NCBI GenBank assembly: GCA_026396615.1
Contig: JAPLWK010000010.1
Coordinates: 48,348-112,347 of the forward strand
Length of the DNA stretch: 64,000 nt
Direction of reading: 5' to 3'
From: a candidate division WWE3 bacterium
GTDB lineage: Bacteria; Patescibacteriota; WWE3; JAPLWK01
Shown: positions 1 to 40,425 of the stretch, piece after piece
Layout of the letters: every line of letters starts with the position of its first letter
Numbering within the stretch: the stretch's first letter is position 1
The notes under the pieces: model-generated
The model's database searches: none
Told to the model about the DNA's origin: nothing
The model's input: only the letters and a program-made list of their open reading frames with translations
Translations under genes and position numbers: made by a program

Positions 1-270
1 GAACCTTTTGGGATTGTGCTTTTGGAAGCGATGGCCTTGGGATGTCCTATTATCGCGTCTAATACCGGAGGTGTTCCCGATCTGGTCAAAAATGATAAGA
101 CGGGAGTGCTTTTTAAGACCGGAGATGTTACCGAACTGTCGTCAAAGCTAGTTGAGCTTATTTATGATGAATTGGAAATGAATCGGTATATTCAAAACGG
201 TTTAACTTTTACTCAAGATTTTGCTTGGAATAAAGTGGCAACTAAATATTTGGAAATCTATGGAAAATAA
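1..270 (+). CDS. Glycosyltransferase family 1 (GT4-like), C-terminal fragment; the 5' end lies outside the window
   Basis: Frame is open from position 1: EPFGIVLLEAMALGCPIIASNTGGVPDLVKNDKTGVLF is the classic GT1 C-terminal E-x7-E nucleotide-sugar-binding motif. TAA stop at 268-270. Confidence 0.75.
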   Translation, partial: EPFGIVLLEAMALGCPIIASNTGGVPDLVKNDKTGVLFKTGDVTELSSKLVELIYDELEMNRYIQNGLTFTQDFAWNKVATKYLEIYGK

Positions 271-1411
271 AAATCATACACCGGTCATCTCCCATCTAAT
301 CTCCGAATTCATGCAAAGCAAGCAGTCTTTTACGTATCGTCAATTTATTAATCACACTAAATACAAAGTCGTGGCTTTAAGTCGGTTTTATTTCAAGGGA
401 TCACGCGAGATTTTTCCGGTCGATGAATTACATTTTTTAACCAGTATTGGTCATATTTATGATTTCTGCGGCCGTTATTTTCCGAAACTACTAGATTTGG
501 CTTTTGATCATTTTTTAAAGTACTGGGTGGTAATTCGCCACATCGAACTTCTCCATATTCATTTTGGCACTTTGGGGGCCAAACTGGCGCATCTGCGCGA
601 TCAACTCAAGATTCCCTTCGTCGTCAGTTTTTACGGTTCCGATACCACATCTTACCCACTAAAACCAGAATGGCAGCCGCTGTACAAAGAGATGTTTGCC
701 AATGTTGACTGTTTTTTGATGCTTTCGGAAATTCCCCGGCAGCAATTAATAGCCTTTGGGGCGCCGGCTGATAAATGCTTGATTCTTCCGCCATCGGTTG
801 ACCTCTCGCACTTCACTTACAAAGAACGAGTGCCTTCAGATGAGATCAAGTTTTTAATTACGGCTCGTTTCGTGGAAAAGAAAGGTCATTTTATTTTACT
901 GGAAGCTTTTAAGAACGTCGTTACCAGCGGACGCCTAGTCAAACTGATGATCATAGGGCACGGTGATCTTTATGGAAAAATTAAAGATAAAATAGCGGCC
1001 GAAAATTTAGGGGACTTTGTGGAGTTAATTGACGTCACGGGAATTACCGATTTCCACAGTTTTATTTTGCCAAAATATCACGAAGCCGATGTCTTCGTTC
1101 TACCGTCAATCGTTGCCGCCGACAACGACCAAGAGGGGACACCGCTTACAATTCTGGAAGCTTCAGCGACCGGTCTTCCCATTATTAGCACCAACGTTGC
1201 CGGTGTTCCTGAAGTCGTTCGGGATGGCATCACCGGTTTCGTGATTCCTCAAAAAGACGTCACCGCATTAACCGAAAAAATGAACGAGCTTTACGATCAA
1301 CCTGAGGTCAGACTAGCCATGGGTAAAGCGGGCCATCAGTTTATGGTCGATAATTTCTCGACGACCAGTTTGCCAGAGAGACTCGATAAAATTTACTCTC
1401 GTCTTTTATGA
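260..1411 (+). CDS. Glycosyltransferase family 1 (GT4-like)
   Basis: ATG at 260 overlaps the upstream stop. The C-terminal half has the GT1 motif (EGTPLTILEASATGLPIISTNVAGVPEVVRDGITGF). TGA stop overlaps the next start (ATGA). Confidence 0.8.
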   Translation: MENKNHTPVISHLISEFMQSKQSFTYRQFINHTKYKVVALSRFYFKGSREIFPVDELHFLTSIGHIYDFCGRYFPKLLDLAFDHFLKYWVVIRHIELLHIHFGTLGAKLAHLRDQLKIPFVVSFYGSDTTSYPLKPEWQPLYKEMFANVDCFLMLSEIPRQQLIAFGAPADKCLILPPSVDLSHFTYKERVPSDEIKFLITARFVEKKGHFILLEAFKNVVTSGRLVKLMIIGHGDLYGKIKDKIAAENLGDFVELIDVTGITDFHSFILPKYHEADVFVLPSIVAADNDQEGTPLTILEASATGLPIISTNVAGVPEVVRDGITGFVIPQKDVTALTEKMNELYDQPEVRLAMGKAGHQFMVDNFSTTSLPERLDKIYSRLL

Positions 1412-3015
1412 ACTTTTTTAAGAAAATTTCCGGAGAATCGTGGGCCGTGGCAGCCATTTTGGTAGCCTCTGCGGTGGTTCGGACCGTGTCTGCCTTTGTC
1501 GTATCGGGGGAGAGTGGGGGAGACTTTTACAACTACCTCTTAATGGGGAAGAGCCTCCTGGCGGGCGGCAGCATCTTCATCGAAAAGCGTTTACCGATTT
1601 ATGCTTTACTTCTCATTCCAGGGCATCTAGTAGGGCACCCACTGGGCTACGCGCGAGTTTTAGGGATCGTTCTGGCTATTTTAACCTTGTACTTTTTCTA
1701 CCGCTTGCTGAAGGATTTACGACTTCCCAGCATAGTTGTAGTAACGTCGTTAATCCTACTGAGCTTTCAACCCACCTTTTTCCTTTTTTCCATTCGGCCG
1801 CTTAGTCACACCCTATTTGATTTGGAAGTAATTATGAGCCTCTACCTTTTCGTCCATCTAACTACAGGCTTTGTTACTACCAAAAAAATCAATTATTTAT
1901 TGCTTGGTCTCTTTGGCCTAGTTTTGGGTATTATGTCAATGACTCGTCACGAAGGTTTCCTGGTCACCGCTGTTTTTCTAGTTTGTCTTTTTATTTTTTT
2001 CTTTTATCAGTATCGCCTTCGTGGTCTCCGAACCATTGCGTCGACCCTTTTCAAAGTTTTGACACTACCCGCATCAATTTTTATTTTGACGGTCTTACCG
2101 TGGTTTATTTCTAATTACCAGCGCTTCGGAAATTTTTTATACACTCAGTATCAGACCGATAACGGCCTTAATGTTGCGTATAATTTGACGTCGGTATTAG
2201 AGAACCTCAACAAAATGCGTCAGATTTTTATAGGGATCTGGAGTAGCTCGAGCATTTTACATTTAACCACAGAAATAATTCCAATTATTTTCATCTTAGT
2301 TTGGTTGACCTTCGGAATGCGACTCGTTAAGAAATCGATCGTCCTTGCAAGTGGGTTAATTATTTTAGGGGTACTCGCCTTTGTTTTTCGATGGCCGCTA
2401 AATTTAGGTTTTGTGGTCGCGGTACTAAGTATTGGATTGACGGCCATCGGTCTTTTTAGCTTGACGACAAAGATTAAATGGCAAATCGCACCGATTATAA
2501 TTATTTTCTTAACCCAGTTTGCTTTTTTGACTTTAGTGCAGCCTTGGTCACGTCACAGCCAACATCTGTTTTTTATCCCGATATTGCTTCTGTCTTTTGG
2601 ATTTTATAAACTAGTATCAACTTACCTAACTAAGGCGACAGCTGTTTGCTGTTTCATATTTGTTTTTCCAATAATACATTATTTTTTTCGGACAGATGTT
2701 CAGGTTGTAAAAGACTACAATACTTCTGGTCTTAAGAATCAACCGCTGTCGCAAACTTTAGTTGACTTTCAAAAATATCCTGATGGAGAGGTTCTAATTT
2801 CGACCGAGTTTAACGATAAGTTTAATAATGATTTGGCGATGGTTGAATATTATTTAGGATCTCGGATTACATACGACTGGAAAGTTTCGACCCGCTTCGT
2901 TTTAGACTATAATGATTCTACGGCATCGAGTCTTTTACCTAAAGAAACGTTAAGGCCGCTAGTACAAGAACAGACGGGCGATAATTGGGCTCAAATTTAT
3001 GAAGTCACTAAGTAA
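1408..3015 (+). CDS. Polytopic membrane protein, GT-C-like; paralog of 11135..12715
   Basis: More than 10 hydrophobic spans. The first loop is acidic (GESGGDFYNY) and a TRHEGFL motif is shared with the 11135 paralog (TRYEGFL). Confidence 0.5.
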   Translation: MNFFKKISGESWAVAAILVASAVVRTVSAFVVSGESGGDFYNYLLMGKSLLAGGSIFIEKRLPIYALLLIPGHLVGHPLGYARVLGIVLAILTLYFFYRLLKDLRLPSIVVVTSLILLSFQPTFFLFSIRPLSHTLFDLEVIMSLYLFVHLTTGFVTTKKINYLLLGLFGLVLGIMSMTRHEGFLVTAVFLVCLFIFFFYQYRLRGLRTIASTLFKVLTLPASIFILTVLPWFISNYQRFGNFLYTQYQTDNGLNVAYNLTSVLENLNKMRQIFIGIWSSSSILHLTTEIIPIIFILVWLTFGMRLVKKSIVLASGLIILGVLAFVFRWPLNLGFVVAVLSIGLTAIGLFSLTTKIKWQIAPIIIIFLTQFAFLTLVQPWSRHSQHLFFIPILLLSFGFYKLVSTYLTKATAVCCFIFVFPIIHYFFRTDVQVVKDYNTSGLKNQPLSQTLVDFQKYPDGEVLISTEFNDKFNNDLAMVEYYLGSRITYDWKVSTRFVLDYNDSTASSLLPKETLRPLVQEQTGDNWAQIYEVTK

Positions 3016-4513
3016 AAAACAGGAACTATTTTTAACGCTCATTGTCTTCGTGATCGCCGTCGCCATTGGCTTTTATCTTCGCTACGTGGCGGCAAGTACA
3101 CTGCCAATGATCAATGACGAAGGTTCTTACCTCTTCGATGCTTACCTTTTAGGTCAAGGTCATCTCCCCTTCCTGACATCCTTCTCGCGAGCGCCAGTCT
3201 TTATGATCCCACTGGCTTTATGGCTAAAGATTTTCGGCGTCAGTATTCTAAGCGGTCGTCTTTTTGCTGTGTTAGTAAGTTTGGGGTCTAGCGTAGTTTT
3301 ATATTTCTTAGGCAAAGAGTTAAAAGGTAAAGCTTTAGGAGTTGTGGCTTTTGTAATTTTTGCCACGATCTCGCCGGTTGCCATTCATGGAAGTTACGTG
3401 CTTACGGAAAATTTAGAAATATTTTTAGGACTACTGGGATCACTATTTTTAATTTACTCTCTTCGAACGCGGCCGTGGTTCCTATCGATTGCCTCTGGTG
3501 TTTGTTTTGGTTTAGCAATAGCGACTAGAGAAACGGCGGCGGTGTACCCATTATTTCTATGTATAGCAATCCTCGTTTTAAGATTTAGTAAACAAACGCT
3601 ACTGCGTTTAGCGCTTTGTGGGTTAGCCACCTTCGGAGTTTGGGCGGTAATGTGGGGTGGGATTGCCTCACAAGTGGGACTAGGCCATGTCGTAAAAAAT
3701 TTTCAAGCGATTTTAAAGATGCATAGTACTGGGGTTAAAGTTTCAACTGGCTTTGTAATTCGCGAGAAGCTGGGCGAAATCTGGTATCTAAAAATTGATT
3801 ATTTGATTTTTTACCTTTCTACTATTGCTTTTGCGATTTTGGCGGTCACTAAGAAGTGGTGGCGTAATAAGCAGATTTGGTTTCTACTAGCTATTGCTGG
3901 TGGTCCAATTCTATTCTACGGCGTTTATTACCAACGCATCCAGCCGGAATATTTCGCGAGCTTTATGCCTGGTTTTACTTTGATGATGGCGTATGTGGTT
4001 GTGGCTATTTATGAATGGCTAAAGACCCGGTCAGCATCTGTAGTAACATCGGTTGGCATCGCCGGCGTCATTATTTTCGGGATTACGAATCTACTTACTT
4101 TTACCTATCAACTTAAAAATAACCGCACTGGAACGTTTTATTTGCAGCCGATGGCAAATGTTGTCGCTTGGTTTCAAGTTAATACCCAGCCGACGGATGA
4201 GATTTTTACCGCGGCCGTCGGGATTCCTATGTTTAGCGGTCGCCACTTGGCACTAAATATTTCCCGGCCGGTAATCTATGGTTACCCGCACATTAAATCG
4301 GATATTAAATATGCCTTGTTCCCCACTCCACAGGCGATTATGGATTATTTAACGGTGAATCAAACTAAGTATTACATTGTGGAAAAAGCAACCAGAGATA
4401 GTTTTTACAACGGGCATTCAGAATTAAAGCAGTTTCTAGAAAGTAACTTTAAGCACTTAAAGACTTTTCCTAATCCTACTAATCCGATTGAAGTTTGGAT
4501 TCGGAACCCCTAA
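2999..4513 (+). CDS. ArnT/PMT-like (GT39/GT83-type) membrane glycosyltransferase-like protein
   Basis: Polytopic. DE motif in the first extracytoplasmic loop (PMINDEGSYLFDAY), typical of polyprenyl-phosphate-sugar-dependent GT-C enzymes. Confidence 0.55.
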   Translation: MKSLSKKQELFLTLIVFVIAVAIGFYLRYVAASTLPMINDEGSYLFDAYLLGQGHLPFLTSFSRAPVFMIPLALWLKIFGVSILSGRLFAVLVSLGSSVVLYFLGKELKGKALGVVAFVIFATISPVAIHGSYVLTENLEIFLGLLGSLFLIYSLRTRPWFLSIASGVCFGLAIATRETAAVYPLFLCIAILVLRFSKQTLLRLALCGLATFGVWAVMWGGIASQVGLGHVVKNFQAILKMHSTGVKVSTGFVIREKLGEIWYLKIDYLIFYLSTIAFAILAVTKKWWRNKQIWFLLAIAGGPILFYGVYYQRIQPEYFASFMPGFTLMMAYVVVAIYEWLKTRSASVVTSVGIAGVIIFGITNLLTFTYQLKNNRTGTFYLQPMANVVAWFQVNTQPTDEIFTAAVGIPMFSGRHLALNISRPVIYGYPHIKSDIKYALFPTPQAIMDYLTVNQTKYYIVEKATRDSFYNGHSELKQFLESNFKHLKTFPNPTNPIEVWIRNP

Positions 4514-4899
4514 GGGGCCCCTTTGGGGCGGTGCCTCTGTTTAAAAATAAAATAAGTTGCTCCAAATAAAGATCCCCAACCAATCAGCCACATAATCGCT
4601 GGTACCCCTTTAATTAGGAAAGTGTTTATTAGTCGTTGTATAAACAGGTGAGTATCGGGGTTAATTACAACTGTCTCGACTGTTTGTTTTAGCAGCGGTT
4701 CCATGATGTGCTTGTTGTATTCAAATTTTATAGCTAAAGTCGCAAAGCCAATCAGATAGACCGCGGCGATGCGCTTAAGCTTGAAAACCAAAACCCCTAG
4801 AGAAATAATTGCCCCAGCCACATAAACAAAAACCAGGCCATTGTGCGCAAAAAGCTGGAAGAATCCAATAATGACATTGTGTTTAAGGTCTTGGTACAT
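4510..4899 (-). CDS. Small (129 aa) membrane protein with 3-4 TM helices; possible GtrA/GtcA-like partner of the adjacent YfhO-like gene
   Basis: Hydrophobic helices, basic C-terminus. Sits immediately downstream of the YfhO-like gene on the same strand. No diagnostic motif recognised. Confidence 0.35.
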   Translation of the reverse strand: MYQDLKHNVIIGFFQLFAHNGLVFVYVAGAIISLGVLVFKLKRIAAVYLIGFATLAIKFEYNKHIMEPLLKQTVETVVINPDTHLFIQRLINTFLIKGVPAIMWLIGWGSLFGATYFIFKQRHRPKGAP

Positions 4900-7258
4900 G
4901 CCCTGATTTTATCATTAATGTGACCGTGGTGAACAAAAGCGCTAAAAATGAGATCACTAAACCATCGTAAATAAATGGATTCCAATATCTTATTACCAAA
5001 GTACCGGGTTGGTTTATCGTAACTGACATGAAAGCACCGTTTTGGGCAATTTTTATAGGCATATTATTAAGTGTGGCTTGGAAGTAAGGGCTGTAAGTCT
5101 TACTTATTAGAATTTGGCCTTTCCCAGTGGGAACTTTTAGGGTAGTAACAAGTGGTGAGCTTTTTGTAACTTGCGCTGTTTGGTAATTAGTTAAAGGCTC
5201 CTCATTTGGTACAAACGCGAATTCTGAAACAAACTTGGGATTTTTATAAATTTTAACCAAATGATCCCAAGGTATTAGGTTTGATTGATTAAAATAGACC
5301 GTGAGCTCCCGATGCTGATTTTCCACTAAGGTTTGAAAATTCCCAACATTGCCTTTGGCAAGTTCCTGGCACAAATTATTATCTTCATCTCGGCACTCAT
5401 TCGTAAAAGCAATCAGCGGGGCACCAATTAATGACCAACTCGGTTCGGAATTAAACTTATTTAAGCAATTTTCTAAAAGTGGGTTACAATTCAGGCTATT
5501 GTCTAAGGCATTTTGGGTGTCTGTCGTCCAACTAGCCCCAAAATAATAGGGGTCATCACCAAATATGGGGGTGTTATTTAAAAAAGTCGCGTACGGCGGG
5601 GCTACGGCGATCCAATTGCGATTATAATGTGGAAAATAGATCCGACCGCCTGTTTGATCTAGTAAACCTTTAATTTTTCCTAAGTACGAAAAATCGGCTA
5701 GTTCTTGTTTGTAGTTAAATAGTAAAAATCCAAAACTGTAACTTTTTGTTCCAAAGGTGGCCGGTCCCCACAGTATTTCCACGAAAACCAGCAGCGAAAT
5801 TGTTAAAGCGCAAAAATAAATTAATAACTTACCGTTTAGAAATCTTTTTAGAGTTCTAAAAACGGCCACAAATCCAACGATCCCAATAATTACTGGAATA
5901 ACGCGGAAAGCTAGGTTGATAACTCGGTTGACGTCAATAAGTCGACCAATAATATTTTCTTGGAAAAAGAAGGCTATGAGCCAAGCCACAACTGGGATAA
6001 GCGTTAATATCGGTTTTTTAGTTAGAATTAATTGGGCTCCTTTAACAATTAGAAAAACATTAGCAATTACCAGGAGCGCTAGGGTTGATGGGATAACGGT
6101 GAAGCGGTTAAAGATCGGTGCTGTAACAAGGAGGTTTGAAATGGGGCTGTCAACCGTCAGTATGATCCCAAGGATTAGTACTCCCAGAAAAGCTTTCTCG
6201 ATTGGCTCAATTGGCCTCTTTTTGACTATTTTGAAAGCTAGCCAGCTTAATCCAAAAAGTAGCAAGATAAAACCGATTAGCCCTGGAGTAAATATTCCCG
6301 TTAGCCTTTGGTCGGGAATGATTGGTAAGTAGTAAACGAGAAATTGTTTTAAAGTTAGATGATTTATCCGGCTTCCAATAACGGTGGAGGTGAGGCGACT
6401 TGAGCCGTTCACAGCCATTAGGCCTACCACTGGCAGTAATTTAACGGCGTAGATTAGCCCAGCCAAGATTCCGGAAAGCGCTAACCACCCTAAGTACTTG
6501 ATTTTGCTTTGAGTGGAGATTGTGTAAACAATAGCAAAAACTGCCAGGCCGATTAAGATGAAAAACGCAGTATTCGGGGAGCCTTCGAATAGAAAGGCTG
6601 TTGGAATAGCCAGAAGGCACAAGTATTTCTTCTCTTTTGTTTGAAAATAGGACCAGGTGAACAAGAAAATTAGTGGTAACCACTTCAACGAGAATAGGTA
6701 CTCAGTGCCGGCACCTTCTGATAGTCGATTAGTAACATAGCCATTGAACATGTAACAAATTCCGCCAATTGTTGCCAGCTCCTTTGATTTAAAAATTCTG
6801 TAAAATAAAAAGAAGGAAAAAAGTCCACAAAGAAATATTTCGATGACGAGTTTAATGTTAAATCCCAAATAGGCGTTATTTAGAAATCAAAGTAGAATTG
6901 TTGGAGAGAAGTATGGGGACAGAGGGTGGGCGAAAATATCAAAACCACCTTCAAAGAGGGTGTTCCAAATCGGAGGCTCTCGAAACTGCAAAATAGTCTT
7001 GCCGAAATATTGGAAGAACGGCAGATTTAAGTGATTGGCATCGGCTTGAGCAATGGCCATTCCGTTAAGAAGCAGCTTACGCATTAAAAAGCCTACTAAA
7101 CCTAAAAACCCTATAAAAATATACCAATTTTCGAAAATGTCTTTTTTGAATTCTTTTAAAATTAGCAGAAAATAAACTAATGGTGCTGTAATTATAAAAA
7201 TAATGAGGAGCCAGTTCCCAAAATCGTAAAAATTCATAGCCGTAATAATACTTGCCAA
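4883..7258 (-). pseudogene. YfhO-like GT-C membrane glycosyltransferase interrupted by an in-frame TGA at 6887-6889 (ORFs 6887..7258 and 4883..6868 share one frame)
   Basis: The upstream 123-aa piece carries the YfhO N-terminal motif (EPPIWNTLFEGGFDIFAHPLSPYFSP). The downstream 661-aa piece aligns colinearly with the intact paralog 32587..34620 across the stop (...SPTILL*FLNNAYLGFNIKLVIE). Confidence 0.6.
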
Positions 7259-7328
7259 GTTTAACCTTCTTGATATCAGCTCGCAACTATCGTTGTCACT
7301 CTGACCAAGAAGTTGTTAGAATGGTCAC

Positions 7329-12717: not shown

Positions 12718-13422
12718 ATGAGTAAATTATCGATTTGTATTCCTGTTTATAACGAGCAGGCGACTATTAGAGAACTTTTAGACAAAGTCACCGCGGTGCC
12801 ACTTGATAAAGAAATTATTGTGGTCAACGATGGTAGCACCGACAGGACCCCACAGATTCTGGCTGAGTATGCAGATAATCATCATATTTCGGTATTTAAT
12901 AAATCAAATGGCGGGAAGGGAACGGCTTTAATCGAGGCTTTTAAACATGTAAGTGGGGACTATGTTGTAGTCCAAGACGCTGATCTCGAATATGATCCCT
13001 TTGATTTCGTAAAAATGCTTGCAACTGCGGAGTCTAAAAATGTCACAGTAGTTTACGGCAGTCGTTTCCTTGGAAAGCCTTTGACAATGTCAGTTCTAAA
13101 GAATTATTTAGCCAGCAAATTATTATCGTTTTTTGTGTGGCTTTTATACGGTCAGATGATCACTGATGAGTCGACGTGCTACAAACTTTTTAAAACAGAA
13201 GTTTTAAAACAGATTCCTTTGGAATGTAAGCGCTTCGAATTTTGTCCAGAAGTGACAGCGAAGGTTTTAAAAAGGGGCATCAAAATTATCGAAGTCCCAG
13301 TCTCTTTTAATCCACGGGATGCCAAAGACGGAAAAAAGATTAGCTACTTAAAAGATGGTTGGGAAGCGGTGGCGACGCTTTTTAAGTATTCTTCACAATT
13401 CAAATCCAGAGGTATCTCATAA
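12718..13422 (+). CDS. DPM1-like GT2 polyprenyl-phosphate glycosyltransferase (soluble form, no C-terminal TM)
   Basis: IPVYNE, VVNDGSTDRT, GKGTA and VVVQDADLEYDP motifs of the dolichyl/undecaprenyl-phosphate sugar synthase family (GtrB/ArnC/DPM1). Confidence 0.85.
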   Translation: MSKLSICIPVYNEQATIRELLDKVTAVPLDKEIIVVNDGSTDRTPQILAEYADNHHISVFNKSNGGKGTALIEAFKHVSGDYVVVQDADLEYDPFDFVKMLATAESKNVTVVYGSRFLGKPLTMSVLKNYLASKLLSFFVWLLYGQMITDESTCYKLFKTEVLKQIPLECKRFEFCPEVTAKVLKRGIKIIEVPVSFNPRDAKDGKKISYLKDGWEAVATLFKYSSQFKSRGIS

Positions 13423-15119: not shown

Positions 15120-15135
15120 ATTGATAGGGCTAAAT

Positions 15136-15822: not shown

Positions 15823-15824
15823 AG

Positions 15825-18154: not shown

Positions 18155-18170
18155 TTATGCAAAAAGTTTT

Positions 18171-32630: not shown

Positions 32631-34620
32631 TTTTTGGTATTAAAAAAATTACCAAAAGAATTATTGTCCAAATTAGTGTTATAACAAGACCAGCTAGATA
32701 GCTGCTATAGATCCACTTAGGAATATTTACTGAGACAGTGGCAACACCCCCTATAATTTTGTAGATGTAAACTATGGGAAGAGGTTTAAATCCAATATCC
32801 TCCTCCATATGGTTACCGGAGGTTGGCCATTTTATAATCTTTATTAATAATAATTGATCTTTTAAAAACTTTGGGAGGTTGCTTGTAATTTCCTCTGTTG
32901 TTACCAATAACGTCGTACCTTGCGATTTAAGATAATCTAGATAATTACTACTAATACTTGGTGCCTCGTATTTATTTGTTATAGCTTGAATATATGAATT
33001 ACTCCAGTAGCTTTTATCAACAAATACAGAAGGCCACAGTGGAACACTAGCCGCAATTAAATTATTAATAACAAAGGAGTTAATTGGACAAACGCTAAAT
33101 GTTGGAAAACAGTCAACCACAGTTAATTTAGGAAAGTTTTTGTTAATAAATTCCAGATGTGGGTAATCATAAAGTGTGTTAATTTTTACTGTTGGAAATC
33201 TTTCTGATAAAGCGACTCTCTCACCCGGTGCGGCATAATAAATTCCGTATGGTAAATATTTACCAAGAATTATAATCGGCGGACTGATAACACCCCAAGT
33301 TTCTCCAAATATTAATAAGGCTACTATAACGCCAGCTAAGCTAGCCAATATTATATTTTTCTTCTTAAGAAATTCGTTGACAACGACTATTAATAGCTCA
33401 ACTCCAAATCCTGATAATAAAGCTATTAAAGAGATTAAAAGAGCGTAGTTTGACGGGGCAATTCCTGATTGGCTAAATAATGGGTAGAATTTATTTAAGA
33501 GTCCGTAGATCGGTGTTTTAATACCTATTAAAATATATAATCCAAATAAGAAAAGTATAAATAACATTTGCAAACGATAACGTTTTAAAAAAATTGCCCC
33601 CAAACTAATTACGGCAAGAAAAATTGCAATATATCCAGGACTAAACCGCCTTTGATTTGTTTGATAGTTAGCTGGCAGTATTGTATTTTTAAAATCATTA
33701 AAACTAGTAATACCTACGGATCGCCAATCTTTTGTGACATCTCTGGTTAAGCTTGTATTTGACGTGAATGATTTAAGCTTATAAGATGGCCAGATTTCTA
33801 TTGCGTTGGACATAAAAATTGAAACTGCAACTATTGCTATAGTTAAAATTACTAGAACAATATTTTTTCGGTCCTTCAAAAATATATACACTAAATATGT
33901 AATAACAATTATTACTATAGCTAAAGAAGAATACACAAAGACGTTTGGTTGAAAGTTAATAATGTTTGAGGCGACCCAACCGGATAACATTGCATAGATA
34001 ACAGATTTTCTTAGACAGTTTATATTTTGTAATGCTTCTAATATAAATAGAAAGCACCATGGTAACCAGCTATAGGCAAAAATATAGCCTATATAAGCAT
34101 TAGTTCCTAGTTTAGAGATAGTCCATTCATTAAACATAAAAACCACAGCCGTGCATATAGCAGCGCCGCTACTAATTTTTAGTTTCTTGGCGAGTAAAAA
34201 AGCGCCAACTCCTGCTAGAATAAAATGGATTAATAGCAGAATGTTAAAGGCGGTATAAGGTTCCAAGATTAAAAATAGGGAAGCAAAAGGGTAATGTAAT
34301 GCGGTTAAAGGATTTCCAAGTGCGGGGACACCGGTTAAGACATGGTTATTCCAAAGAGGTATTAAACCTTGCTTTATAGAATCTCGGTAAACAATGTAAT
34401 TTTGAATAAAATCAAACTGAGCATCCCTTTGGGTAATGGTTACGCCACGGGTAAAAAACGGATCGGCTAAAAATAATAGGCTAAGACCAGCGATTACGAT
34501 TAGGTAAAATTTATTTTTCCAGATAACTTGTCTGATTGAGATTAGCAATATCACGAAGACTATGATCGGAATTAAAATTAATTCGGAGATACCTAAAATC
34601 TGGAAAATGCTTGATAACAC
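32587..34620 (-). CDS. YfhO-family GT-C membrane glycosyltransferase
   Basis: YfhO N-terminal motif (GLIPLWNNHVLTGVPALGNPLTALHYPFASLF), more than 12 TM helices, C-terminal extracytoplasmic domain. Confidence 0.65.
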   Translation of the reverse strand: MLSSIFQILGISELILIPIIVFVILLISIRQVIWKNKFYLIVIAGLSLLFLADPFFTRGVTITQRDAQFDFIQNYIVYRDSIKQGLIPLWNNHVLTGVPALGNPLTALHYPFASLFLILEPYTAFNILLLIHFILAGVGAFLLAKKLKISSGAAICTAVVFMFNEWTISKLGTNAYIGYIFAYSWLPWCFLFILEALQNINCLRKSVIYAMLSGWVASNIINFQPNVFVYSSLAIVIIVITYLVYIFLKDRKNIVLVILTIAIVAVSIFMSNAIEIWPSYKLKSFTSNTSLTRDVTKDWRSVGITSFNDFKNTILPANYQTNQRRFSPGYIAIFLAVISLGAIFLKRYRLQMLFILFLFGLYILIGIKTPIYGLLNKFYPLFSQSGIAPSNYALLISLIALLSGFGVELLIVVVNEFLKKKNIILASLAGVIVALLIFGETWGVISPPIIILGKYLPYGIYYAAPGERVALSERFPTVKINTLYDYPHLEFINKNFPKLTVVDCFPTFSVCPINSFVINNLIAASVPLWPSVFVDKSYWSNSYIQAITNKYEAPSISSNYLDYLKSQGTTLLVTTEEITSNLPKFLKDQLLLIKIIKWPTSGNHMEEDIGFKPLPIVYIYKIIGGVATVSVNIPKWIYSSYLAGLVITLIWTIILLVIFLIPKIKWCKEKFQGHKSL

Positions 34621-34690
34621 AAGATAATACTACCACTAAGTTGCTTTTCTAGTCCATATTTTTAAATAGATAACAGAGTTTAATTATTGC

Positions 34691-34696
34691 TATAAT
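34691..34696 (+). promoter_or_regulatory. Candidate extended -10 element (TGcTATAAT) 20 nt upstream of the DUF2079-like gene start
   Basis: TGCTATAAT lies in the divergent intergenic region. There is no convincing -35. Confidence 0.25.
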
Positions 34697-34715
34697 ATGC
34701 TGTTAACATTAATAA

Positions 34716-36920
34716 ATGACTAGAGTTATTAGCATTAAAAATTTAGTAAGGAAGTTTTTAGCTTTGTTACCTTTTGGTATTTTGCTAACTTTCGGAGTGG
34801 TAATTTTTAAGGTTTCCACAAGGCTTCTTTTTTATAAATACGCCACATTCCAAACAAGTAAATTTGATCTAGGTATAATGGCCCAAACAGTTTGGAACAC
34901 CGCGCATGGTCGGTTTTTTGAATTTACCGATCATTTTGGGACAAACATGTCTCAAGCCGCCACTCACACCGATTATTTAATGGTAATCTTCGCACCTCTT
35001 TTTTGGATTTGGAACGATCCTCGAGTACTTCTAGTAGCTCAAGCACTATTATTAACATCTTCCGTTATTCCCATATATCTTCTGATTAAAATAAAGACAA
35101 AATCTAATTGGCTTGGATTAATTTGGGGAATTATCTTTTTGGTTTACCCGGCTGTCGCCTTTTTACTTCTGTCCGACTTTCACAGCGTTACCTTAGTGAT
35201 TCCATTATTCATTTGGGCCTTTTATTTTTTAGAAAAGAATTGGCTGATACCGTTTTTGATTGTTATTGGTCTTGCTTTGTTTGGCAAGGAAGAAATATCA
35301 TTAATCGTTATATTTTTTGGGCTTTACATTGCCTTTTTTCGTCATAGAAAACATTTAGGACTGGCGGTAATTACTTGCGGAATCTTGTGGGCCATCGTTA
35401 CTTTTGGTTTAATTATTCCTTCGTATGGCGGAATTCGTGAAAAGAGCTTCACTAGCTTTACAAACTACGCGTTGAGCGATCAATCTGAAATGTTTCGCAC
35501 CGGTAACTCACAAAATTTCTTCTTAAATCGTTACGATCAGTTCGGCGATTCATATACGAATATTGCCTGGAATATCATTTCTAATCCAAAAAATACGCTT
35601 AGCGTTTTAATATCTTCTGAAAATAGAGACTATTTATTTAAAGTATTTGGTCCCCTAATTTTTATTCCAGCATTAAATTTACCAATTATTTTAATTACTT
35701 TGCCTGAGTTTGCCATTAACCTGCTTAGTAACAACTCTGCCATGAAAGGAATTAAACTGCAGTATATTTCATCAATTATTCCATTTTTATTTGTATCCTC
35801 TATTTTTTTCATAGCTTATCTAAAAAAGAGAGTACCTGGTAAGTTCTCATTGGTCTCTGTTTATTCCATCTCGCTTGTAGTTTTGGTAGCCTCTCTGTGG
35901 GCTTCTAGTAGGTTTAATAGTCCTTTATGGCCTTATTTAGAACATGGCGGGCCACTAATAAAGCTGGTTAGCTTCGTGAATAATTATTTTGATCACAATA
36001 ACGGTTTAGCCAACACATCAGCCATTGAGTCTACAGATGAAAGCAATTTGAATATATCTCAAACTTCAGGGTTACCTGGAGGTGCAGGCACTTCGGATAA
36101 TGCTAATTTGGTAGTAGTAAAAATAAAGACTAGTATTGGTAATTCCTATGAAGGCTTAGGTTTTAGTAATCCTAAGGATAGTGACACGGCGGAATATACG
36201 ATAAAACAAATTCCGGAAAAGGCCTCTGTTTCGGCGCCTAATTTCTTGGGAGCTCAATTATCGCTAAGACCTTCCTTAGCCCTCTTTCCAGCTAATTATA
36301 AAGATGCTGATGATGTAGTGGTAGACTTGGCTTCTGATCAAGTTTTACATTCGGTTGATAATTTTAACATTACCCCTCTAATACCAAAGTTTGTAAGTGA
36401 TCTTCTAAGTAATAATTCTTATCAAATTAAATACTTTGGTAACAGCTTAATTTTGTTTGAAAAGTCTTCATCTAATAATAATTTTAAAAAAGGCCTTGAT
36501 TTTAATATAGAAGTTTTAGACACCGGAAGTTATTTAAAAGGATCGGAGATCAGTTACAACTCTGGATTGTCTTTACAGGACCCGTTATTTCCAGATCAAC
36601 TCCTCATAAATTCTGATAATAAAATCACGCAAGTTTGGGCGATTAACCGGTATTTTAGCAATAAGCCGCTTATAATTACGACTAGTTTAGTCAATAAAGA
36701 GTCTCGAAAGGTTTTTCAACTGGTTAATTTAGCCAGTTATTCCCTAAATAAGACCGATACTTGGGATGCTGAGCATGTTTACAAAGAAACTCTAAATTTT
36801 AAAATTCCGAGTTTTGTGGCGCCTGGAAATTACGACTTAGTGGTTGGAATTAGTGATTTTGATAATAAAAACATAATTGAAGCCCGTTATATTAAAGAAG
36901 TTGTAGTAGTTACTCCTTAA
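34716..36920 (+). CDS. DUF2079-like polytopic membrane protein with a large Asn/Ser-rich C-terminal extracytoplasmic domain
   Basis: N-terminal motif FDLGIMAQTVWNTAHGRFFEF resembles the DUF2079 DLG..Q..W signature. 10+ TM spans are followed by about 330 aa of soluble domain. Confidence 0.4.
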   Translation: MTRVISIKNLVRKFLALLPFGILLTFGVVIFKVSTRLLFYKYATFQTSKFDLGIMAQTVWNTAHGRFFEFTDHFGTNMSQAATHTDYLMVIFAPLFWIWNDPRVLLVAQALLLTSSVIPIYLLIKIKTKSNWLGLIWGIIFLVYPAVAFLLLSDFHSVTLVIPLFIWAFYFLEKNWLIPFLIVIGLALFGKEEISLIVIFFGLYIAFFRHRKHLGLAVITCGILWAIVTFGLIIPSYGGIREKSFTSFTNYALSDQSEMFRTGNSQNFFLNRYDQFGDSYTNIAWNIISNPKNTLSVLISSENRDYLFKVFGPLIFIPALNLPIILITLPEFAINLLSNNSAMKGIKLQYISSIIPFLFVSSIFFIAYLKKRVPGKFSLVSVYSISLVVLVASLWASSRFNSPLWPYLEHGGPLIKLVSFVNNYFDHNNGLANTSAIESTDESNLNISQTSGLPGGAGTSDNANLVVVKIKTSIGNSYEGLGFSNPKDSDTAEYTIKQIPEKASVSAPNFLGAQLSLRPSLALFPANYKDADDVVVDLASDQVLHSVDNFNITPLIPKFVSDLLSNNSYQIKYFGNSLILFEKSSSNNNFKKGLDFNIEVLDTGSYLKGSEISYNSGLSLQDPLFPDQLLINSDNKITQVWAINRYFSNKPLIITTSLVNKESRKVFQLVNLASYSLNKTDTWDAEHVYKETLNFKIPSFVAPGNYDLVVGISDFDNKNIIEARYIKEVVVVTP

Positions 36921-36973: not shown

Positions 36974-38488
36974 TTGGAACTTTTAAATATGGTCTATTTT
37001 CTTATTTTCTTAGCCACACTTTTTCCTCGAGTTTATAAAATAGGTTTTGATTTATTCAACACTGATGCCTTCTTTTGGAAAGAGAATACCTATAATTTCA
37101 TTGGTTTATTTGCTGATCACAGGTTTGCCGACATGGCCATCACCCACCACCCTGGCGTAACACTCATGTGGCTGGGAGGAATCGGGATGAAGATTTTTCG
37201 GGGCTTGTACTTTGTTGTCAAACATGTGCCGGCTCCAAATACTCAAGCCGTCGTTTTGTGGACAAACTTCTCCCAGAATTTACCGATCGCGCTTGTTTGC
37301 ACTGGGGCCGTCGCCGTCTCTTACTATTTAATCAAGCGGCTCTTTAATAATCAGCGTTTAGCTTTGGTTACGTCACTTCTGCTGGCGACTGAGCCGTGGT
37401 TGGTGGCTCATAGCCGAGTTTACAATACTGACGCTTTGATGACGTCTTTTATGTTTTTGTCGGTCTTAACTTTGTGGTTGGCTTTGTTGGAAACTAAATA
37501 CATTAAATGGGCGGTACTTAGTGGCGTCTTTGCTGGTCTCGCTTTGTTGACCAAAAGTATCTCGTTATTTTTAATTCCGTTTTTACTGTTAAGTGTTGGG
37601 GCATTTGTAATCTTTAAGAAGTTGTCAATTAAGAAGGCCATGACCATCGTGTCGACCGTTGTTGCAGCATGCGTGGCAACGTTTTTAGTCGTCTGGCCGG
37701 CGATGTGGACGAGTCCTGTGTCGACATTAAAGCTTTACTGGAACGGGATCTTCTTAGAAGGGGATACTCGGCTTAATTTACATAACATGTTTGGGCATCC
37801 AACCATGAACCCAGGGCCGATTTTTTACCCATTAGCTTTTCTATTAAGATTTACTCCAGAATTAATTGCCGCTTTTGCTATTGGCTTGATACTCTTGATA
37901 AAGAGGATTAATAGGAGAGAAGGAGACAAAGATGAAACCAGTTTGTTTTTATTACTATCTTTAGGATTTATAGTTTTCTATATGTTAGAAATATCGCTGG
38001 CAACTAAAAAATTGGATCGGTATTTGCTGCCGGTTGTTCCCTTCGTCGCCTTAATTGCGAGTTACGCTTTTGTGCAGCTAAAAAAGAAAATATTATTAAT
38101 TGTTTTAGGGGTAATATTAGCAATAAGGGTAATTGTTTTGGGTATATATCAACCGGACTATTTGGCTTATTATAACCCACTGCTTGGCGGTCCCACCGCT
38201 GGCTATAACTTTGATGGTGAATGGTGGGGAGAGGGGTATCACTTGGTTGGAAGTTGGATTAATGAGAAGTTAGAAGTTAGAGCGGTAGCGGCTTACGATA
38301 ATCGCCAACTGCGCCCTTTTGTTAAAGATAATATTGCAGTTTATGATGCTGGCGATAAAAAATTGGATGCTAATAAGGTTGATTTATGGGTATTAAAATA
38401 CAAAGATGGTGGTCGACAAGGTTTTCAGATTATAGATACTGTTAGCGTGGCTGGTTATCCGATGTGGGGAATTTACAAAAAGATTTAA
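36974..38488 (+). CDS. Polytopic membrane protein, GT-C (GT39-like) candidate
   Basis: Multi-TM with a first-loop HHPGVTLMWLGG motif and a YNPLLGG C-terminal motif shared with 7329 and 26814 (YNLASGG / YNPLIGG). Confidence 0.45.
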   Translation: MELLNMVYFLIFLATLFPRVYKIGFDLFNTDAFFWKENTYNFIGLFADHRFADMAITHHPGVTLMWLGGIGMKIFRGLYFVVKHVPAPNTQAVVLWTNFSQNLPIALVCTGAVAVSYYLIKRLFNNQRLALVTSLLLATEPWLVAHSRVYNTDALMTSFMFLSVLTLWLALLETKYIKWAVLSGVFAGLALLTKSISLFLIPFLLLSVGAFVIFKKLSIKKAMTIVSTVVAACVATFLVVWPAMWTSPVSTLKLYWNGIFLEGDTRLNLHNMFGHPTMNPGPIFYPLAFLLRFTPELIAAFAIGLILLIKRINRREGDKDETSLFLLLSLGFIVFYMLEISLATKKLDRYLLPVVPFVALIASYAFVQLKKKILLIVLGVILAIRVIVLGIYQPDYLAYYNPLLGGPTAGYNFDGEWWGEGYHLVGSWINEKLEVRAVAAYDNRQLRPFVKDNIAVYDAGDKKLDANKVDLWVLKYKDGGRQGFQIIDTVSVAGYPMWGIYKKI

Positions 38489-38491
38489 TAT

Positions 38492-39697
38492 ATGCGAATT
38501 ATCTGTTTATCAAATCAGCTCTGGGACTGGCCGCTGTGGACTAATAAGCGGCAAGTTATGTCTAGGCTTGCGAACCTGGGGCATGAAGTCATCTTCGTGG
38601 ATCCACCGATTAGGCTGCAGAAATTAGCGAAACAAATTAGTGAAGGAAAGTGGTCAGGCCAACGTCTTTTGACCGGGTCAAGAATTGTGAAAACAGAGTT
38701 TGGGGAAAACAAAGAAGTCTTAAATTACACTCCGATAACATTGTCATATTCTGAAGATCCAAATTTGGTTAGTTTTAATGTGGATCGGATAAATCGGTTG
38801 CGGGTTCAGCAGGTTGAACCCCTACGGTTGGGTCTAGATATGACTCAAGAAAAGACGGTGCTGTGGGTTTATAACGTTTCGATGCGCGAGTATGTTGATA
38901 AAATACCACATGATTACTTAATTTATGATTGCGTTGATAATTATCCGGCGATGGCGAATTATCAGCGGTTAGGATTGTCGGAAGCCGTCGCTAGTTGGGA
39001 AATTGAACTTGCCAAAAAGTCAGACCTGGTTTTTACATCAGCGCCCGGTCTTAAAAAGCGATTAAGCCAAATTAATCCAAAAACGTTCTTTATTCCTAAC
39101 GCTGGCAATTATGAATTATTCTCGTCCGCCAGTCGAGAGCGCACGCCAATGCCGCCAAGCCTTGAAAATATACCCAGGCCGATTATTGGGTTTACGGGAA
39201 CGATTGATGATTACAAGGTCGATGTTGAATTAGTAATCAAAGCGGCGAAGGCATTACCTAATTACTCGTTCGTTATTATCGGTCCGCATGGTGAGGCTGA
39301 TAAATCACCAGATCTTAAAAAGTTGACAGTCCTACCAAACATTCACCTACTACCACAAGTAAAATACGACGATCAAGTGCCTTTCTACACTTATTTTGAT
39401 GCTTTTATTATCCCGTACAGACTTAATGACTATACTATTGAGGGCTGCTTCCCCATAAAATTCTGTGATGCGCTGTCGTCCGGTCTTCCGGTTGTCGTCA
39501 CCAATTTGCCGGCTTACGCTGATTTTAAAGATGTTTGCTATATTGGAGACTCTGATGAAGAGTTTGTTAAAATGATAAAGCAGGCAGTTGACGAAAATTC
39601 CGAAGAGCGTTGTGAGTCGCGTCGCGCGATTGCCAAGCAGAATTCTTGGGATGGAAAAGTGGCCCGTCAGTTAAATATTATCAGTGAGAATCTATGA
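38492..39697 (+). CDS. Glycosyltransferase family 1-like (GT4-type)
   Basis: IICLSNQLWDWPLW...GHEVIFVDP N-terminal Rossmann-like region and a C-terminal IIGFTGTIDDYKVD...FVIIGP donor-binding-like region. Confidence 0.55.
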   Translation: MRIICLSNQLWDWPLWTNKRQVMSRLANLGHEVIFVDPPIRLQKLAKQISEGKWSGQRLLTGSRIVKTEFGENKEVLNYTPITLSYSEDPNLVSFNVDRINRLRVQQVEPLRLGLDMTQEKTVLWVYNVSMREYVDKIPHDYLIYDCVDNYPAMANYQRLGLSEAVASWEIELAKKSDLVFTSAPGLKKRLSQINPKTFFIPNAGNYELFSSASRERTPMPPSLENIPRPIIGFTGTIDDYKVDVELVIKAAKALPNYSFVIIGPHGEADKSPDLKKLTVLPNIHLLPQVKYDDQVPFYTYFDAFIIPYRLNDYTIEGCFPIKFCDALSSGLPVVVTNLPAYADFKDVCYIGDSDEEFVKMIKQAVDENSEERCESRRAIAKQNSWDGKVARQLNIISENL

Positions 39698-40425
39698 GGC
39701 GACTTGAAATTGACATGCCGGTTTATAACGAAGAAGTAGATTTGCCGAAGAATATTCCGGTTTTATATGATTTTTGCGTTGCTAATTTACAGAATTATGA
39801 TTGGTCAATTAAGATTGTTGACAATGCTTCCAAAGATAACACTTGGAATGTCGTTTCTGAGTTGTCACTAAAGTATCTCGGGAAAGTAAGCGGTCTTAAA
39901 CTTGATCGCAAGGGTCGAGGTTGGGCGTTGCGACAAGCGTGGACGACGTCTAAGGCTGACTATGTATCCTACATGGACATTGACTTGTCTTCAGACCTCG
40001 CGACTTTTCCGAAACTGCTCCGTCTTTTGGATGACGGGTACGATATGGCTGTCGGGTCCCGAAACATGCGAGAGTCCGAAGTCATCGGTCGAACGCTGCT
40101 GCGAGAAATCATGTCACGGACTTACATTACCCTCGTTAAATTAATGCATGGCACGCATGTTTCCGATACCCAGTGTGGTTTTAAGGCCTTACGCCGCAGT
40201 GCTTTCATAAAAGTTGAGCCGGTGATTGAAAATAATTTGTGGTTTTTTGATTCGGAAATGGTGATTTTGTTTGAAAAAGTGAGCTTTAAAGTCAAAGATG
40301 TTCCGATCAAATGGGTTGATGACCGTCATACTACGGTAAAAATTGCCAAGGACTCTTACGAGGAATTTAGCGGTCTTACGCGTCTTCTTAGAACTAAACC
40401 TTGGAAGGCTTTAACAACTTCATAA
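39694..40425 (+). CDS. Glycosyltransferase family 2
   Basis: MPVYNEE and IVDNASKDNT motifs, plus a DxD-equivalent YMDIDLSSD. Confidence 0.7.
   Translation: MRRLEIDMPVYNEEVDLPKNIPVLYDFCVANLQNYDWSIKIVDNASKDNTWNVVSELSLKYLGKVSGLKLDRKGRGWALRQAWTTSKADYVSYMDIDLSSDLATFPKLLRLLDDGYDMAVGSRNMRESEVIGRTLLREIMSRTYITLVKLMHGTHVSDTQCGFKALRRSAFIKVEPVIENNLWFFDSEMVILFEKVSFKVKDVPIKWVDDRHTTVKIAKDSYEEFSGLTRLLRTKPWKALTTS

Follow-up and report, generated by a model that had tools for sequence, protein, structure and literature searches.

A conserved chromosomal locus of candidate division WWE3 that may encode a multi-component transmembrane glycosylation pathway

A recognised variant of multi-component transmembrane glycosylation combines a soluble glycosyltransferase (GT) of the GT-A type with a Wzx-type flippase and a PMT_2-type GT-C enzyme, as exemplified by GacI/J/K/L, and transferases for lipid A, teichoic acid and polysaccharides are among the members of the ArnT/PMT clan (PMC8035078). 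In archaea, a flippase role in glycosylation has been proposed for an MprF-like domain, such as the one at the C-terminus of AglD (PMC5898192); fusions of GT-B enzymes to such a domain have been catalogued in other phyla (bioRxiv 10.1101/2022.03.11.483950), and a glycosyltransferase is combined with a flippase in the glycolipid operons gpgSDF of P. aeruginosa (PMC12713373) and HexSDF of C. difficile (PMC10128005). Here we analyse a stretch of 64,000 nucleotides (nt) from a metagenome-assembled genome (MAG) of a candidate division WWE3 bacterium (the window; genes are named by their start coordinate in it), which contains a glycosylation locus of about 41 kb. Bacteria of the Candidate Phyla Radiation (CPR), or Patescibacteria, are ultra-small and mostly uncultured. 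Those in culture grow attached to other microbes, and the surface chemistry of these bacteria presumably determines how they attach, which hosts they use and how they resist phages. A study of 2013 already remarked on the abundance of glycosyltransferases in a WWE3 genome and raised the possibility of a glycosylated S-layer or polysaccharide (PMC3812714); full-text searches on glycosyltransferases and GT-C enzymes of CPR, Patescibacteria and WWE3 brought up no account of such a locus architecture.

Genes were assigned with Pfam (cut-offs given below are gathering scores), NCBIfam, hydropathy and all-against-all BLASTP. Positions 1 to 40425 hold 29 genes without a break; the longest intergenic gap measures 104 nt, many genes overlap by 4 to 44 nt, and the packing amounts to a few operon-like runs. 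A first description made from the letters alone (the sequence-only reading) had held that nearly every gene here is related to glycans, and indeed 28 of the 29 were assigned to glycosylation families, the exception being a membrane protein of 129 amino acids (aa) encoded on the reverse strand (4510-4899). The locus comprises 16 GT-C genes, five soluble GT2 genes (one a deletion pseudogene), six GT4 genes (one fused) and one gene for a Wzx-type flippase, and it is open at the left, where the cluster extends past window position 1. Sixteen GT-C genes among 29 consecutive genes are far from random. The remaining 23.6 kb of the window contain one weak GT-C candidate, and a tblastn search with the 16 GT-C proteins against 1.47 Mb from 80 loci of isoleucyl-tRNA synthetase (IleRS), mostly from Patescibacteria, gave no match at E<=1e-6. 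Our preferred reading, to which we give moderate confidence, is that this conserved WWE3 chromosomal locus codes for a transmembrane glycosylation pathway of several components, with steps on either side of the membrane.

The conservation of the locus is evident from two metagenomic genomes of relatives, represented by a Logan contig that runs from ftsA to a 26814-like gene and a JGI contig that runs from a 10021-like GT4 gene to a ribonucleotide reductase gene. About 20 co-directional genes are common to these relatives and constitute a core whose full order is a composite of both contigs, as no contig spans all of it. On one strand, this core consists of two GT4 genes (with an epimerase gene and a small open reading frame, ORF), 1408-, 2999- and 7329-like GT-C genes, two further GT4 genes, an 11135-like GT-C gene, two soluble GT2 genes of one type (the trio described below), an intact GT2 gene resembling DPMS, two GT-C genes of the 18742/20198 type, the Wzx gene, a GT4-flippase fusion, 26814-, 28375- (with a PGA_cap domain) and 36974-like GT-C genes, a GT4 gene and a 39694-like GT2 gene. 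Amino acid identities between the relatives and the window amount to 41-79% for most genes and to 28-29% for the second copy of the 18742/20198 type. In the Logan relative, ftsA, ftsZ and a 177-aa ORF (region 13-3026 of the contig) immediately precede the cluster, and in the JGI relative a 245-aa gene in the position of 39694 is followed by ribonucleotide reductase, as in the window. The class of this reductase differs at the same position: the window encodes an anaerobic NrdD and a radical-SAM activase (40561-43515), the JGI relative (region 18330-20585 of its contig) a 719-aa enzyme with Ribonuc_red_lgN/lgC and ATP-cone domains, followed by a CobA/BtuR-type gene. The IleRS of the window (43985-46807) shows 57-62% identity to that of WWE3 and Patescibacteria MAGs; among the nearest relatives found through these IleRS loci, the 10 kb upstream of IleRS contain neither the cluster nor NrdD.

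Four blocks of the window are missing at the matching junctions in relatives, and three of them include genes on the opposite strand. Cassette A (4510-7258, reverse strand), which consists of a broken YfhO-like gene and the 129-aa ORF (at least two hydrophobic segments), is missing in the Logan relative between the 2999- and 7329-like genes. Cassette B (13344-17363, reverse strand), with the gene order GT-C, GT2, GT-C, is missing in both relatives and is the only one that looks like a self-contained donor and transferase module for add-on decoration. Cassette C (25129-26817) is a single GT87 gene, which both relatives lack between their fusion gene and their 26814-like gene, and cassette D (30948-36920), composed of a GT-C gene, a YfhO-like gene on the reverse strand and a DUF2079 gene, is missing in the JGI relative. 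The four cassettes are presumably accessory decoration modules that were gained, duplicated and lost. Per-run Logan assemblies, which are independent of the MAG, are 100% identical to the window over 1-2065, 2351-7953, 22907-25308 and 30305-34839 and span both junctions of cassette A as well as the left junction of cassette D.

The sequence-only reading had called the cluster an island. However, the core is syntenic in at least two related genomes, as came out of the comparison of gene order that the same reading had proposed, and only the four cassettes are specific to the source genome. The locus is not a mobile island but a conserved chromosomal locus with variable cassettes, because the core has the same order and position in relatives, the searches revealed neither an integrase or transposase nor a flanking tRNA, and the core has a G+C content of 0.406 compared to 0.419 in the rest of the window. 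The window as a whole has a G+C content of about 0.40 and the cassettes of 0.374, with the lowest values in 32587 (0.33, the minimum of the cluster) and 34716 (0.35). A search of viral contigs for relatives of 13344 and 34716, which has low sensitivity, yielded none.

At least 17 polytopic GT-C candidates with acidic motifs in the first loop had been expected from the letters alone; the family and the motifs were borne out, while the number is 16 genes, or 17 ORFs through a split gene. All 16 proteins have 7 to 12 transmembrane (TM) segments predicted by hydropathy, and 11 of them exceed the Pfam gathering score of a GT-C family, so that profile searches place polytopic proteins among GT-C families and not among transporters, the outcome that the sequence-only reading had named as refuting it. 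Nine match PMT or PMT_2 (cut-off of the latter 26.1 bits). In the core, all on the forward strand, these are 2999-4513 (PMT_2, 41.1 bits; loop-1 motif NDEGSY; ortholog in the Logan relative 59% identical), 7329-8909 (PMT, 57.5 bits, and PMT_2; WDEY), 11135-12715 (PMT_2, 33.7 bits; orthologs 55-56%), 18742-20208 (PMT_2, 28.8 bits), 26814-28418 (PMT, 41.8 bits; PDEP; orthologs 41-46%), 28375-30951 (PMT, 58.8 bits) and 36974-38488 (PMT_2, 52 bits, and PMT; ortholog 61%). The other two, 13344-15119 (PMT_2, 40 bits) and 15825-17363 (PMT_2, 32.4 bits; VDDDW), lie on the reverse strand in cassette B. Proteins 7329, 26814, 28375 and 36974 are above the cut-off of Pfam PMT itself (PF02366). The forward-strand gene of cassette C, 25129-26817, matches GT87 (76.4 bits) and weakly PRK13375, 'mannosyltransferase' (NCBIfam), and 34716-36920 in cassette D, also on the forward strand, matches DUF2079 of the GT-C clan (184 bits). 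NCBI already names some cluster proteins, e.g. 'glycosyltransferase family 39 protein' (7329) and 'flippase-like domain-containing protein', and homologs carry the NCBI or JGI names 'GT39' and 'dolichyl-phosphate-mannose-protein mannosyltransferase'. The PMT-type protein 28375 ends in a PGA_cap (CapA-like) domain (54.8 bits, residues 693-783), a fusion that is kept in its ortholog of the JGI relative (51% identity).

For the other five polytopic proteins, GT-C membership rests on indirect links: one is sub-threshold, two are connected by hhalign and two transitively through YfhO-annotated homologs. The first, 30948-32630 (forward strand, cassette D), reaches 21.6 bits with PMT_2 and is 30% identical to 13344 over 556 aa (E 2e-79). 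The remaining four have no direct Pfam match, i.e. 1408-3015 (forward strand, core, 12 TM segments; ortholog in the Logan relative 44%), 20198-21679 (forward strand, core; orthologs 54%; motifs ASGVD and WHDWGGGW..GPRFYT conserved), 32587 and the split gene 4883+6887. A profile of the 1408/11135 family (A4) aligned to one of the PMT family that includes 7329 (A6) with a probability of 97% (E 3e-11), and a profile of the 18742/20198 family (A5) to A6 with 96% (E 7e-9). BLASTP confirmed all four paralog pairs named by the sequence-only reading, namely, besides 13344/30948, the pairs 1408/11135 (31% identity, E 8e-12), 18742/20198 (41.5%, E 3e-112) and 4883/32587 (23%, E 9e-8). By inspection, an Asp- or Glu-containing motif in loop 1 is present in 16 of 16 proteins (NDE, WDEY, PDE, DDE, DDD, GVD, SDF, PDEP, VDEP, FDL). 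Invariant or nearly invariant residues of this loop in the family alignments are D39 (A4, where G38-D39 is invariant), D65 (A5), D38/E39 (A6) and D66 (A3). These acidic residues, conserved within families, form a putative catalytic motif of GT-C enzymes.

Neither 32587 (32587-34620, reverse strand, cassette D; an identical NCBI protein, NT141_03355, is named 'hypothetical protein') nor 4883/6887 matches Pfam YfhO (PF09586) even at E<=10, and they are best described as YfhO-like rather than as members of the YfhO family. Direct phmmer homologs of 32587 are few, and two of them (E 4e-9 and 5e-8) carry PF09586; a profile built from the homologs retrieves about 85,000 proteins, with a YfhO match in 54 of 60 sampled, and Asp66 in loop 1 is nearly invariant in the alignment of this YfhO-like family. 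The TM segments of 32587 extend to about residue 441 and are followed by a non-TM stretch of about 200 aa and a last TM segment at 643-661; in ORF 4883 the corresponding segment lies at 635-653. This agrees with the YfhO architecture, in which an N-terminal TM bundle is separated from a last TM helix by a large extracytoplasmic domain. An AlphaFold2 model of 32587 (pLDDT 72, pTM 0.78, above 90 in the TM core and of low confidence in the C-terminal domain) shows a helical bundle of residues 1-445 and a C-terminal TM helix. When a deeper model was searched with Foldseek, the top 27 matches were likewise all GT-C proteins, and transporters appeared only at non-significant scores; the structural matches of 32587 include Pmt4 and subunits of oligosaccharyltransferase (OST). 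The model thus supports a GT-C fold for 32587, the one membrane protein for which this check was carried out. PDB sequence searches with 7329, 25129, 34716 and a YfhO-like profile (A1) returned nothing useful and no Pmt match because these GT-Cs are too divergent; fold comparison alone worked.

The broken gene of cassette A (4883-7258, reverse strand) is a likely pseudogene, as had been suggested before. ORFs 6887-7258 and 4883-6868 share one frame and are split by a single TGA (6887-6889), reading through which would give 791 aa. Both parts align in order with 32587 (residues 2-261 of ORF 4883 correspond to residues 124-390 of 32587). The same TGA occurs in an independent per-run Logan assembly that is 100% identical over 5603 bp, so the split did not arise from an error in the consensus of the MAG. 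Use of TGA as a recoded codon is unlikely: all other genes read normally with table 11, and a nonsense mutation is thus the simpler reading.

The GT2 enzymes that would supply lipid-linked donors are all soluble. They are 228-243 aa long, without a TM segment predicted by hydropathy, and DAD motifs (DxD-type) are visible in all those compared; a conserved C-terminal stretch, W..DG...W.LIKYRF, could be an amphipathic helix. Three complete paralogs of about 230 aa had been announced, although the wording counted them among the polytopic proteins, and this trio was recovered (228-234 aa, 48-50% mutual identity): 12718-13422 (forward strand, core; Glycos_transf_2, 119 bits; orthologs 66-72%), 17468-18154 (forward strand, core; 136 bits; orthologs 73-79%) and 15136-15822 (reverse strand, cassette B; 49-50% identical to the other two), the relatives having two such genes only. 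Between 12718 (13223-13298) and 15136 (15239-15314) a patch of 76 nt shows 86% nucleotide identity, the proteins being 50% identical overall; it covers a 21-residue motif and reflects either strong constraint or local gene conversion. The last gene of the cluster, 39694-40425 (forward strand, core; Glycos_transf_2, 73 bits), had been set apart as another GT2, but its matches indicate that it is DPMS/ArnC-like, too; the second additional GT2 of the sequence-only reading lies outside the range, at 56750. Homologs of 39694 were seen beside a GT-C with Pfam MptA_B_family on another contig of metagenome 3300013125 (1328-3501), beside an 18269-like GT2 in a Patescibacteria MAG (2948-4172) and, at 38% identity, in the actinobacterium Segniliparus rugosus (21937-22593). 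A link of the cluster to MptA/B was discarded, the MptA_B_family protein having no similarity to window proteins.

The fifth GT2 gene (18157-18766, forward strand) belongs to a separate lineage with 27-30% identity to the trio and is the truncated remnant that had been recognised from the letters alone (ORF 18269). Measured against its intact 238-aa ortholog on the JGI contig (3447-4163; 78% identity over the remainder), it keeps the start MQKVLV (ATG 18157) and has lost about 107 nt, i.e. codons ~7-42 including TPTYNE, whereby the frame is shifted. For each GT2 queried in the PDB (17468, 39694 and this intact ortholog), DPMS and ArnC lead the matches: 17468 matches Pyrococcus DPMS 5mlz with E 9e-21 (residues 2-207, covering the complete catalytic domain), ArnC with 2e-20 and GtrB 5ekp with 4e-13, 39694 matches 5mlz with E 1.7e-15 (residues 4-207), and the ortholog of 18157 matches it over its full length (residues 2-237, E 1e-30). 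In NCBIfam, the trio ranks highest with AglJ, ArnC and Dol-P-hexose transferase and lower with PpgS; as all scores stay below the equivalog cut-offs (at best 115 bits with AglJ, cut-off 325), sugar and enzyme name are not assignable. All these enzymes are thus closest to polyprenyl-phosphate sugar synthases, polyprenyl-phosphate sugars being the products predicted for them, and the term 'DPM1 paralogs' fits only partly: the trio appears nearer to AglJ/ArnC-type enzymes, and by its matches the most DPM1-like GT2 of the locus is the dead gene 18157.

At least seven enzymes had been ascribed to GT1. GT-B enzymes are indeed present, but six lie in the range and a seventh at 55520, and Pfam Glycos_transf_1 assigns them to CAZy GT4, not GT1; none reaches a named NCBIfam equivalog. 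The six in the range are all encoded on the forward strand. The first (1-267) is a C-terminal end whose start lies left of the window and whose frame +1 translation ends ...EPFGIVLLEAMALGCPIIASNTGGVP...YGK*; a Logan assembly extends this gene region 403 nt upstream, and the cluster of the Logan relative likewise begins with a GT4 gene. It is followed by the core genes 260-1411 (111 bits; database product starting at ATG 260; ortholog in the Logan relative 53%), 8906-10033 (125 bits; orthologs in the Logan relative 48-54%), 10021-11154 (83 bits; orthologs in both relatives 54-59%) and 38492-39697 (Glyco_trans_1_4, 47.7 bits; ortholog 68%; best, below cut-off, with a TuaH-like NCBIfam model). 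The sixth is the N-terminal domain of the fusion 23124-25145, which has full-length orthologs in the core of the relatives (58-65%). Its GT4 domain (residues 16-333) is 40-50% identical to widespread stand-alone GT4s and weakly matches a GlcNAc-PG synthase model (E 5e-4); residues 392-665 match LPG_synthase_TM (PF03706) with 169.6 bits (cut-off 33.4) and the protein matches TIGR00374 with 99.8 bits (cut-off 43.2), seven TM segments lying in residues 386-653. The preceding core gene, 21676-23127, encodes a Wzx-type (MOP) protein (Polysacc_synt_3, 59.7 bits, cut-off 23; Polysacc_synt, 40.4 bits, cut-off 28.2; 10 TM segments by hydropathy; orthologs 68-78%) that reaches no NCBIfam equivalog. The flippase and the GT-flippase fusion of the sequence-only reading are therefore both real, with a GT4 instead of a GT1 part; flipping is a predicted activity of either protein.

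Taken together, these components suggest the following pathway. Cytoplasmic GT4s would build a lipid-linked starter from nucleotide sugars, and the fusion protein 23124 may both make and flip a glycolipid; the Wzx-type protein, the MprF-like domain or both would move lipid-linked intermediates to the outer face. The four intact soluble GT2s would load single sugars onto polyprenyl phosphate, the carrier presumably being undecaprenyl phosphate because the organism is a bacterium. The fifteen intact GT-Cs (PMT/PMT_2-like, GT87, DUF2079 and YfhO-like) would then transfer the sugars outside onto a surface glycoconjugate, each of them expected to have its own linkage or acceptor. Lipoglycans, wall polysaccharides and proteins of the cell surface are all candidate acceptors. 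The roughly 20 core genes most likely make up one pathway for a complex glycan or lipoglycan, to which the cassettes would add strain-specific decoration. The analysis itself shows the families and folds, the synteny, the cassettes and the two lesions that inactivate genes; which lipids and sugars serve as donors, what is flipped, what is glycosylated and in which order belong to the proposal.

Several points weigh against this reading. That the core is one pathway is suggested by synteny and packing, and it could also be several independent systems; every function is deduced from remote homology, and the structure model covers one of the 16 GT-C candidates. Among the ORFs of at least 100 aa in the window there is no initiating phosphoglycosyltransferase of the WecA/WbaP type and, at E<=0.01, no match to a GtrA-type flippase (PF04138), for which a gene may exist in another part of the genome. 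The ORFs scanned in the window include no nucleotide-sugar synthesis genes, the cluster contains neither an oligosaccharyltransferase nor a ligase, and the window holds no candidate acceptor protein. In addition, no small membrane partner like GacJ or DPM3 was recognised. ORF 4510 and the small ORFs of the Logan relative, considered as GtrA- or GacJ-like proteins, were rejected, as they have no Pfam match at E<=10.

The sequence-only reading had favoured an alternative in which the cluster is a set of independent three-component modules of the Gtr or CsbB/GtcA/YfhO type, each decorating an existing polymer (for example a polysaccharide, an S-layer glycan or a polymer like teichoic acid) and together providing combinatorial surface variation. 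GT2s, flippase-like proteins and GT-Cs are all present, cassette B is a compact GT-C/GT2/GT-C unit that relatives lack, gain, duplication and decay of genes are visible, and in Firmicutes several GT-A/GT-C pairs use one common flippase (PMC8035078). However, the GT2s lack the TM anchor of GtrB and CsbB, no GtrA-family protein was found, as described above, and four intact GT2s stand against fifteen intact GT-Cs, most of which lie unpaired in the co-directional conserved core together with the GT4s and Wzx. This ratio of donor synthases to GT-Cs and the shared core fit an assembly line like that of mycobacterial LM/LAM or of the eukaryotic ALG pathway better than one-to-one Gtr-like modules. 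Combinatorial variation finds no support either: no homopolymer or simple-repeat tracts exist in the cluster and the inverted repeats detected do not flank promoters, for which reason phase variation was rejected, and the two cassette genes searched on viral contigs had no relatives there, within the limited sensitivity of that search. We thus consider a set of independent modules unlikely as an account of the locus.

Protein O-glycosylation, in which PMT-like enzymes, in the manner of actinobacterial Pmt or eukaryotic PMTs, put a sugar from polyprenyl phosphate directly on Ser/Thr residues of proteins that are secreted (S-layer proteins, pilins or adhesins, for instance) and in which paralogs specialise by substrate or extend the O-glycan, is a similarly doubtful alternative. 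The four proteins above the Pfam PMT cut-off, the names given to homologs by NCBI and JGI, the DPMS-like donor synthases next to them and the structural matches of 32587 to Pmt4 and OST subunits are in line with it, and earlier work suggested that WWE3 may have a glycosylated S-layer (PMC3812714). On the other hand, a match to PMT or PMT_2 points to the ArnT/PMT clan in general, a Pfam scan of the PMT-matching proteins detected no MIR domain, 7329, 25129, 34716 and the YfhO-like profile had no PDB sequence match to Pmt proteins, and the window offers no candidate acceptor protein; furthermore, the GT4s and Wzx suggest a lipid-linked oligosaccharide and not only the transfer of single sugars. 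Neither alternative is incompatible with the transmembrane pathway proposed here.

An improbable extension of this pathway is that the locus assembles the principal polymer of the envelope in this WWE3 lineage, a lipoglycan or wall polysaccharide built mostly outside the membrane by about 15 GT-Cs from lipid-linked monosaccharides. In a relative the locus lies directly downstream of ftsA-ftsZ. If true, this would be a bacterial counterpart of the ALG or lipoarabinomannan (LAM) pathway in one operon-like locus, and such a polymer might make up for a peptidoglycan pathway that was reported to be incomplete in a WWE3 genome (PMC3812714).

That the cluster is an artefact, i.e. a chimeric MAG contig or a set of transporters or other membrane proteins mistaken for GT-Cs, is exceedingly improbable. 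In its favour are the origin of the contig from a MAG, the lack of a direct Pfam match for four polytopic proteins and the low confidence in the C-terminal domain of the only structure modelled. Against it, independent Logan assemblies are 100% identical over four stretches including both cassette A junctions, the gene order recurs in contigs from other samples, all family matches are to GT-C and none to a transporter family, and the fold search ranks GT-C first with transporters non-significant.

The rest of the window contains a second, smaller glycan cluster (52938-58982) with a gene for a 418-aa polytopic protein on the reverse strand (PMT_2 at a sub-threshold 18.1 bits), a Wzx gene (54195-55631), a GT4 gene (55520-56746), a 315-aa GT2 (EpsD-like, 162 bits, below cut-off) and a gene for a Wzy_C/O-antigen-ligase-like protein (57672-58982). 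WWE3 relatives have at this place only the Wzx, the Wzy_C protein and a neighbouring Glucodextran_B-domain protein; the GT4, GT2 and GT-C-like genes are extras of the window. A gene for an AAA_14/DUF4143 ATPase (47951-49132, reverse strand) and an adjacent 122-aa ORF without Pfam match (47620-47988) sit among the housekeeping genes for IleRS, L21, signal peptidase, TGT and GidB. An Rfam scan of the window revealed three tRNA genes and nothing else. A G+C-rich, internally palindromic element of 38 nt, GTTTGCCGGATTCCGGCTCAGGGGCCGGAATGACTAAA, is present in two inverted copies (51177-51214 and 63062-63099; 89% match), both intergenic, and may be a terminator-like or REP-like repeat. A promoter scan gave 40 sites compared to 45 expected in shuffled sequence, i.e. 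no excess, and terminator-like sites were in slight excess (29 compared to 20 expected); neither was used as evidence.

All components of the locus come from known families, and there is no new enzyme class; what is unusual is the scale and organisation, as a single 41-kb locus of a small genome unites 16 GT-C genes from four families with five genes for donor synthases and combines a conserved core with cassettes that turn over. Devoting about 41 kb to one glycosylation locus suggests that the organism invests heavily in an elaborate surface glycan, and with four GT-Cs too divergent for Pfam the locus is a source for mining divergent members of this class.

In the eukaryotic ALG/DPM1 dolichol pathway, GT4 enzymes (ALG1/2/11), the flippase Rft1 and GT-C enzymes (ALG3/9/12) act in a sequence that is paralleled by the GT4s, the MOP-type flippase and the GT-Cs of the locus. 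To the archaeal Agl system the trio is linked by its best matches, AglJ (NCBIfam, 115 bits, below cut-off) and Pyrococcus DPMS. In contrast to both Agl and ALG, the cluster lacks an oligosaccharyltransferase of the STT3/AglB/PglB type and an initiator of the ALG7/WecA type. AglD (PMC5898192), like 23124, is a fusion of a glycosyltransferase to a UPF0104/MprF-like domain, the partner being a GT2 in AglD and a GT4 (GT-B) here. A glycosyltransferase is likewise coupled to a PplT/LPG_synthase_TM flippase in HexSDF and gpgSDF, where the flippase is a separate gene whereas it is fused in 23124, which also lacks a deacetylase partner.

The systems GtrA/B/C for O-antigen glucosylation and CsbB/GtcA/YfhO for GlcNAcylation of teichoic acids share with the locus a GtrB-related GT2, YfhO- or PMT_2-like GT-Cs and modular gain and loss. 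They differ in that the GT2s of the locus have no C-terminal TM helices, no GtrA/GtcA homolog is present among the window ORFs of at least 100 aa, the YfhO-like proteins fall short of Pfam YfhO, and GT2s and GT-Cs are not paired one to one. Assembly of phosphatidylinositol (PI) mannosides, lipomannan and LAM and of arabinogalactan in mycobacteria involves PimA/B (GT4), Ppm1 (GT2), PimE (GT87) and the GT-Cs MptA-C, Emb and Aft, encoded by dispersed genes. The locus resembles the mycobacterial PIM/LM/LAM system in having the same four enzyme classes, the two-compartment logic and few lipid-linked donors for many GT-Cs, as well as a GT87 member and a soluble catalytic domain of the donor synthase. 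No window protein matches Pfam MptA_B_family, however, and genes for a PI anchor or for decaprenyl-phospho-arabinose were not seen; the likeness is one of enzyme class, and the genes of the WWE3 bacterium are united in one 41-kb locus.

By its parts, the nearest described system appears to be the GacI/J/K/L type. Like the locus, GacI/J/K/L of Streptococcus pyogenes combines a GT-A of about 230 aa without an anchor, a Wzx-type flippase and a PMT_2-type GT-C; a GacJ-like partner is not seen in the locus (Pfam, E<=10). In contrast to GacI/J/K/L, which has one of each, the WWE3 locus brings together 16 GT-Cs of four families and four to five donor synthases.

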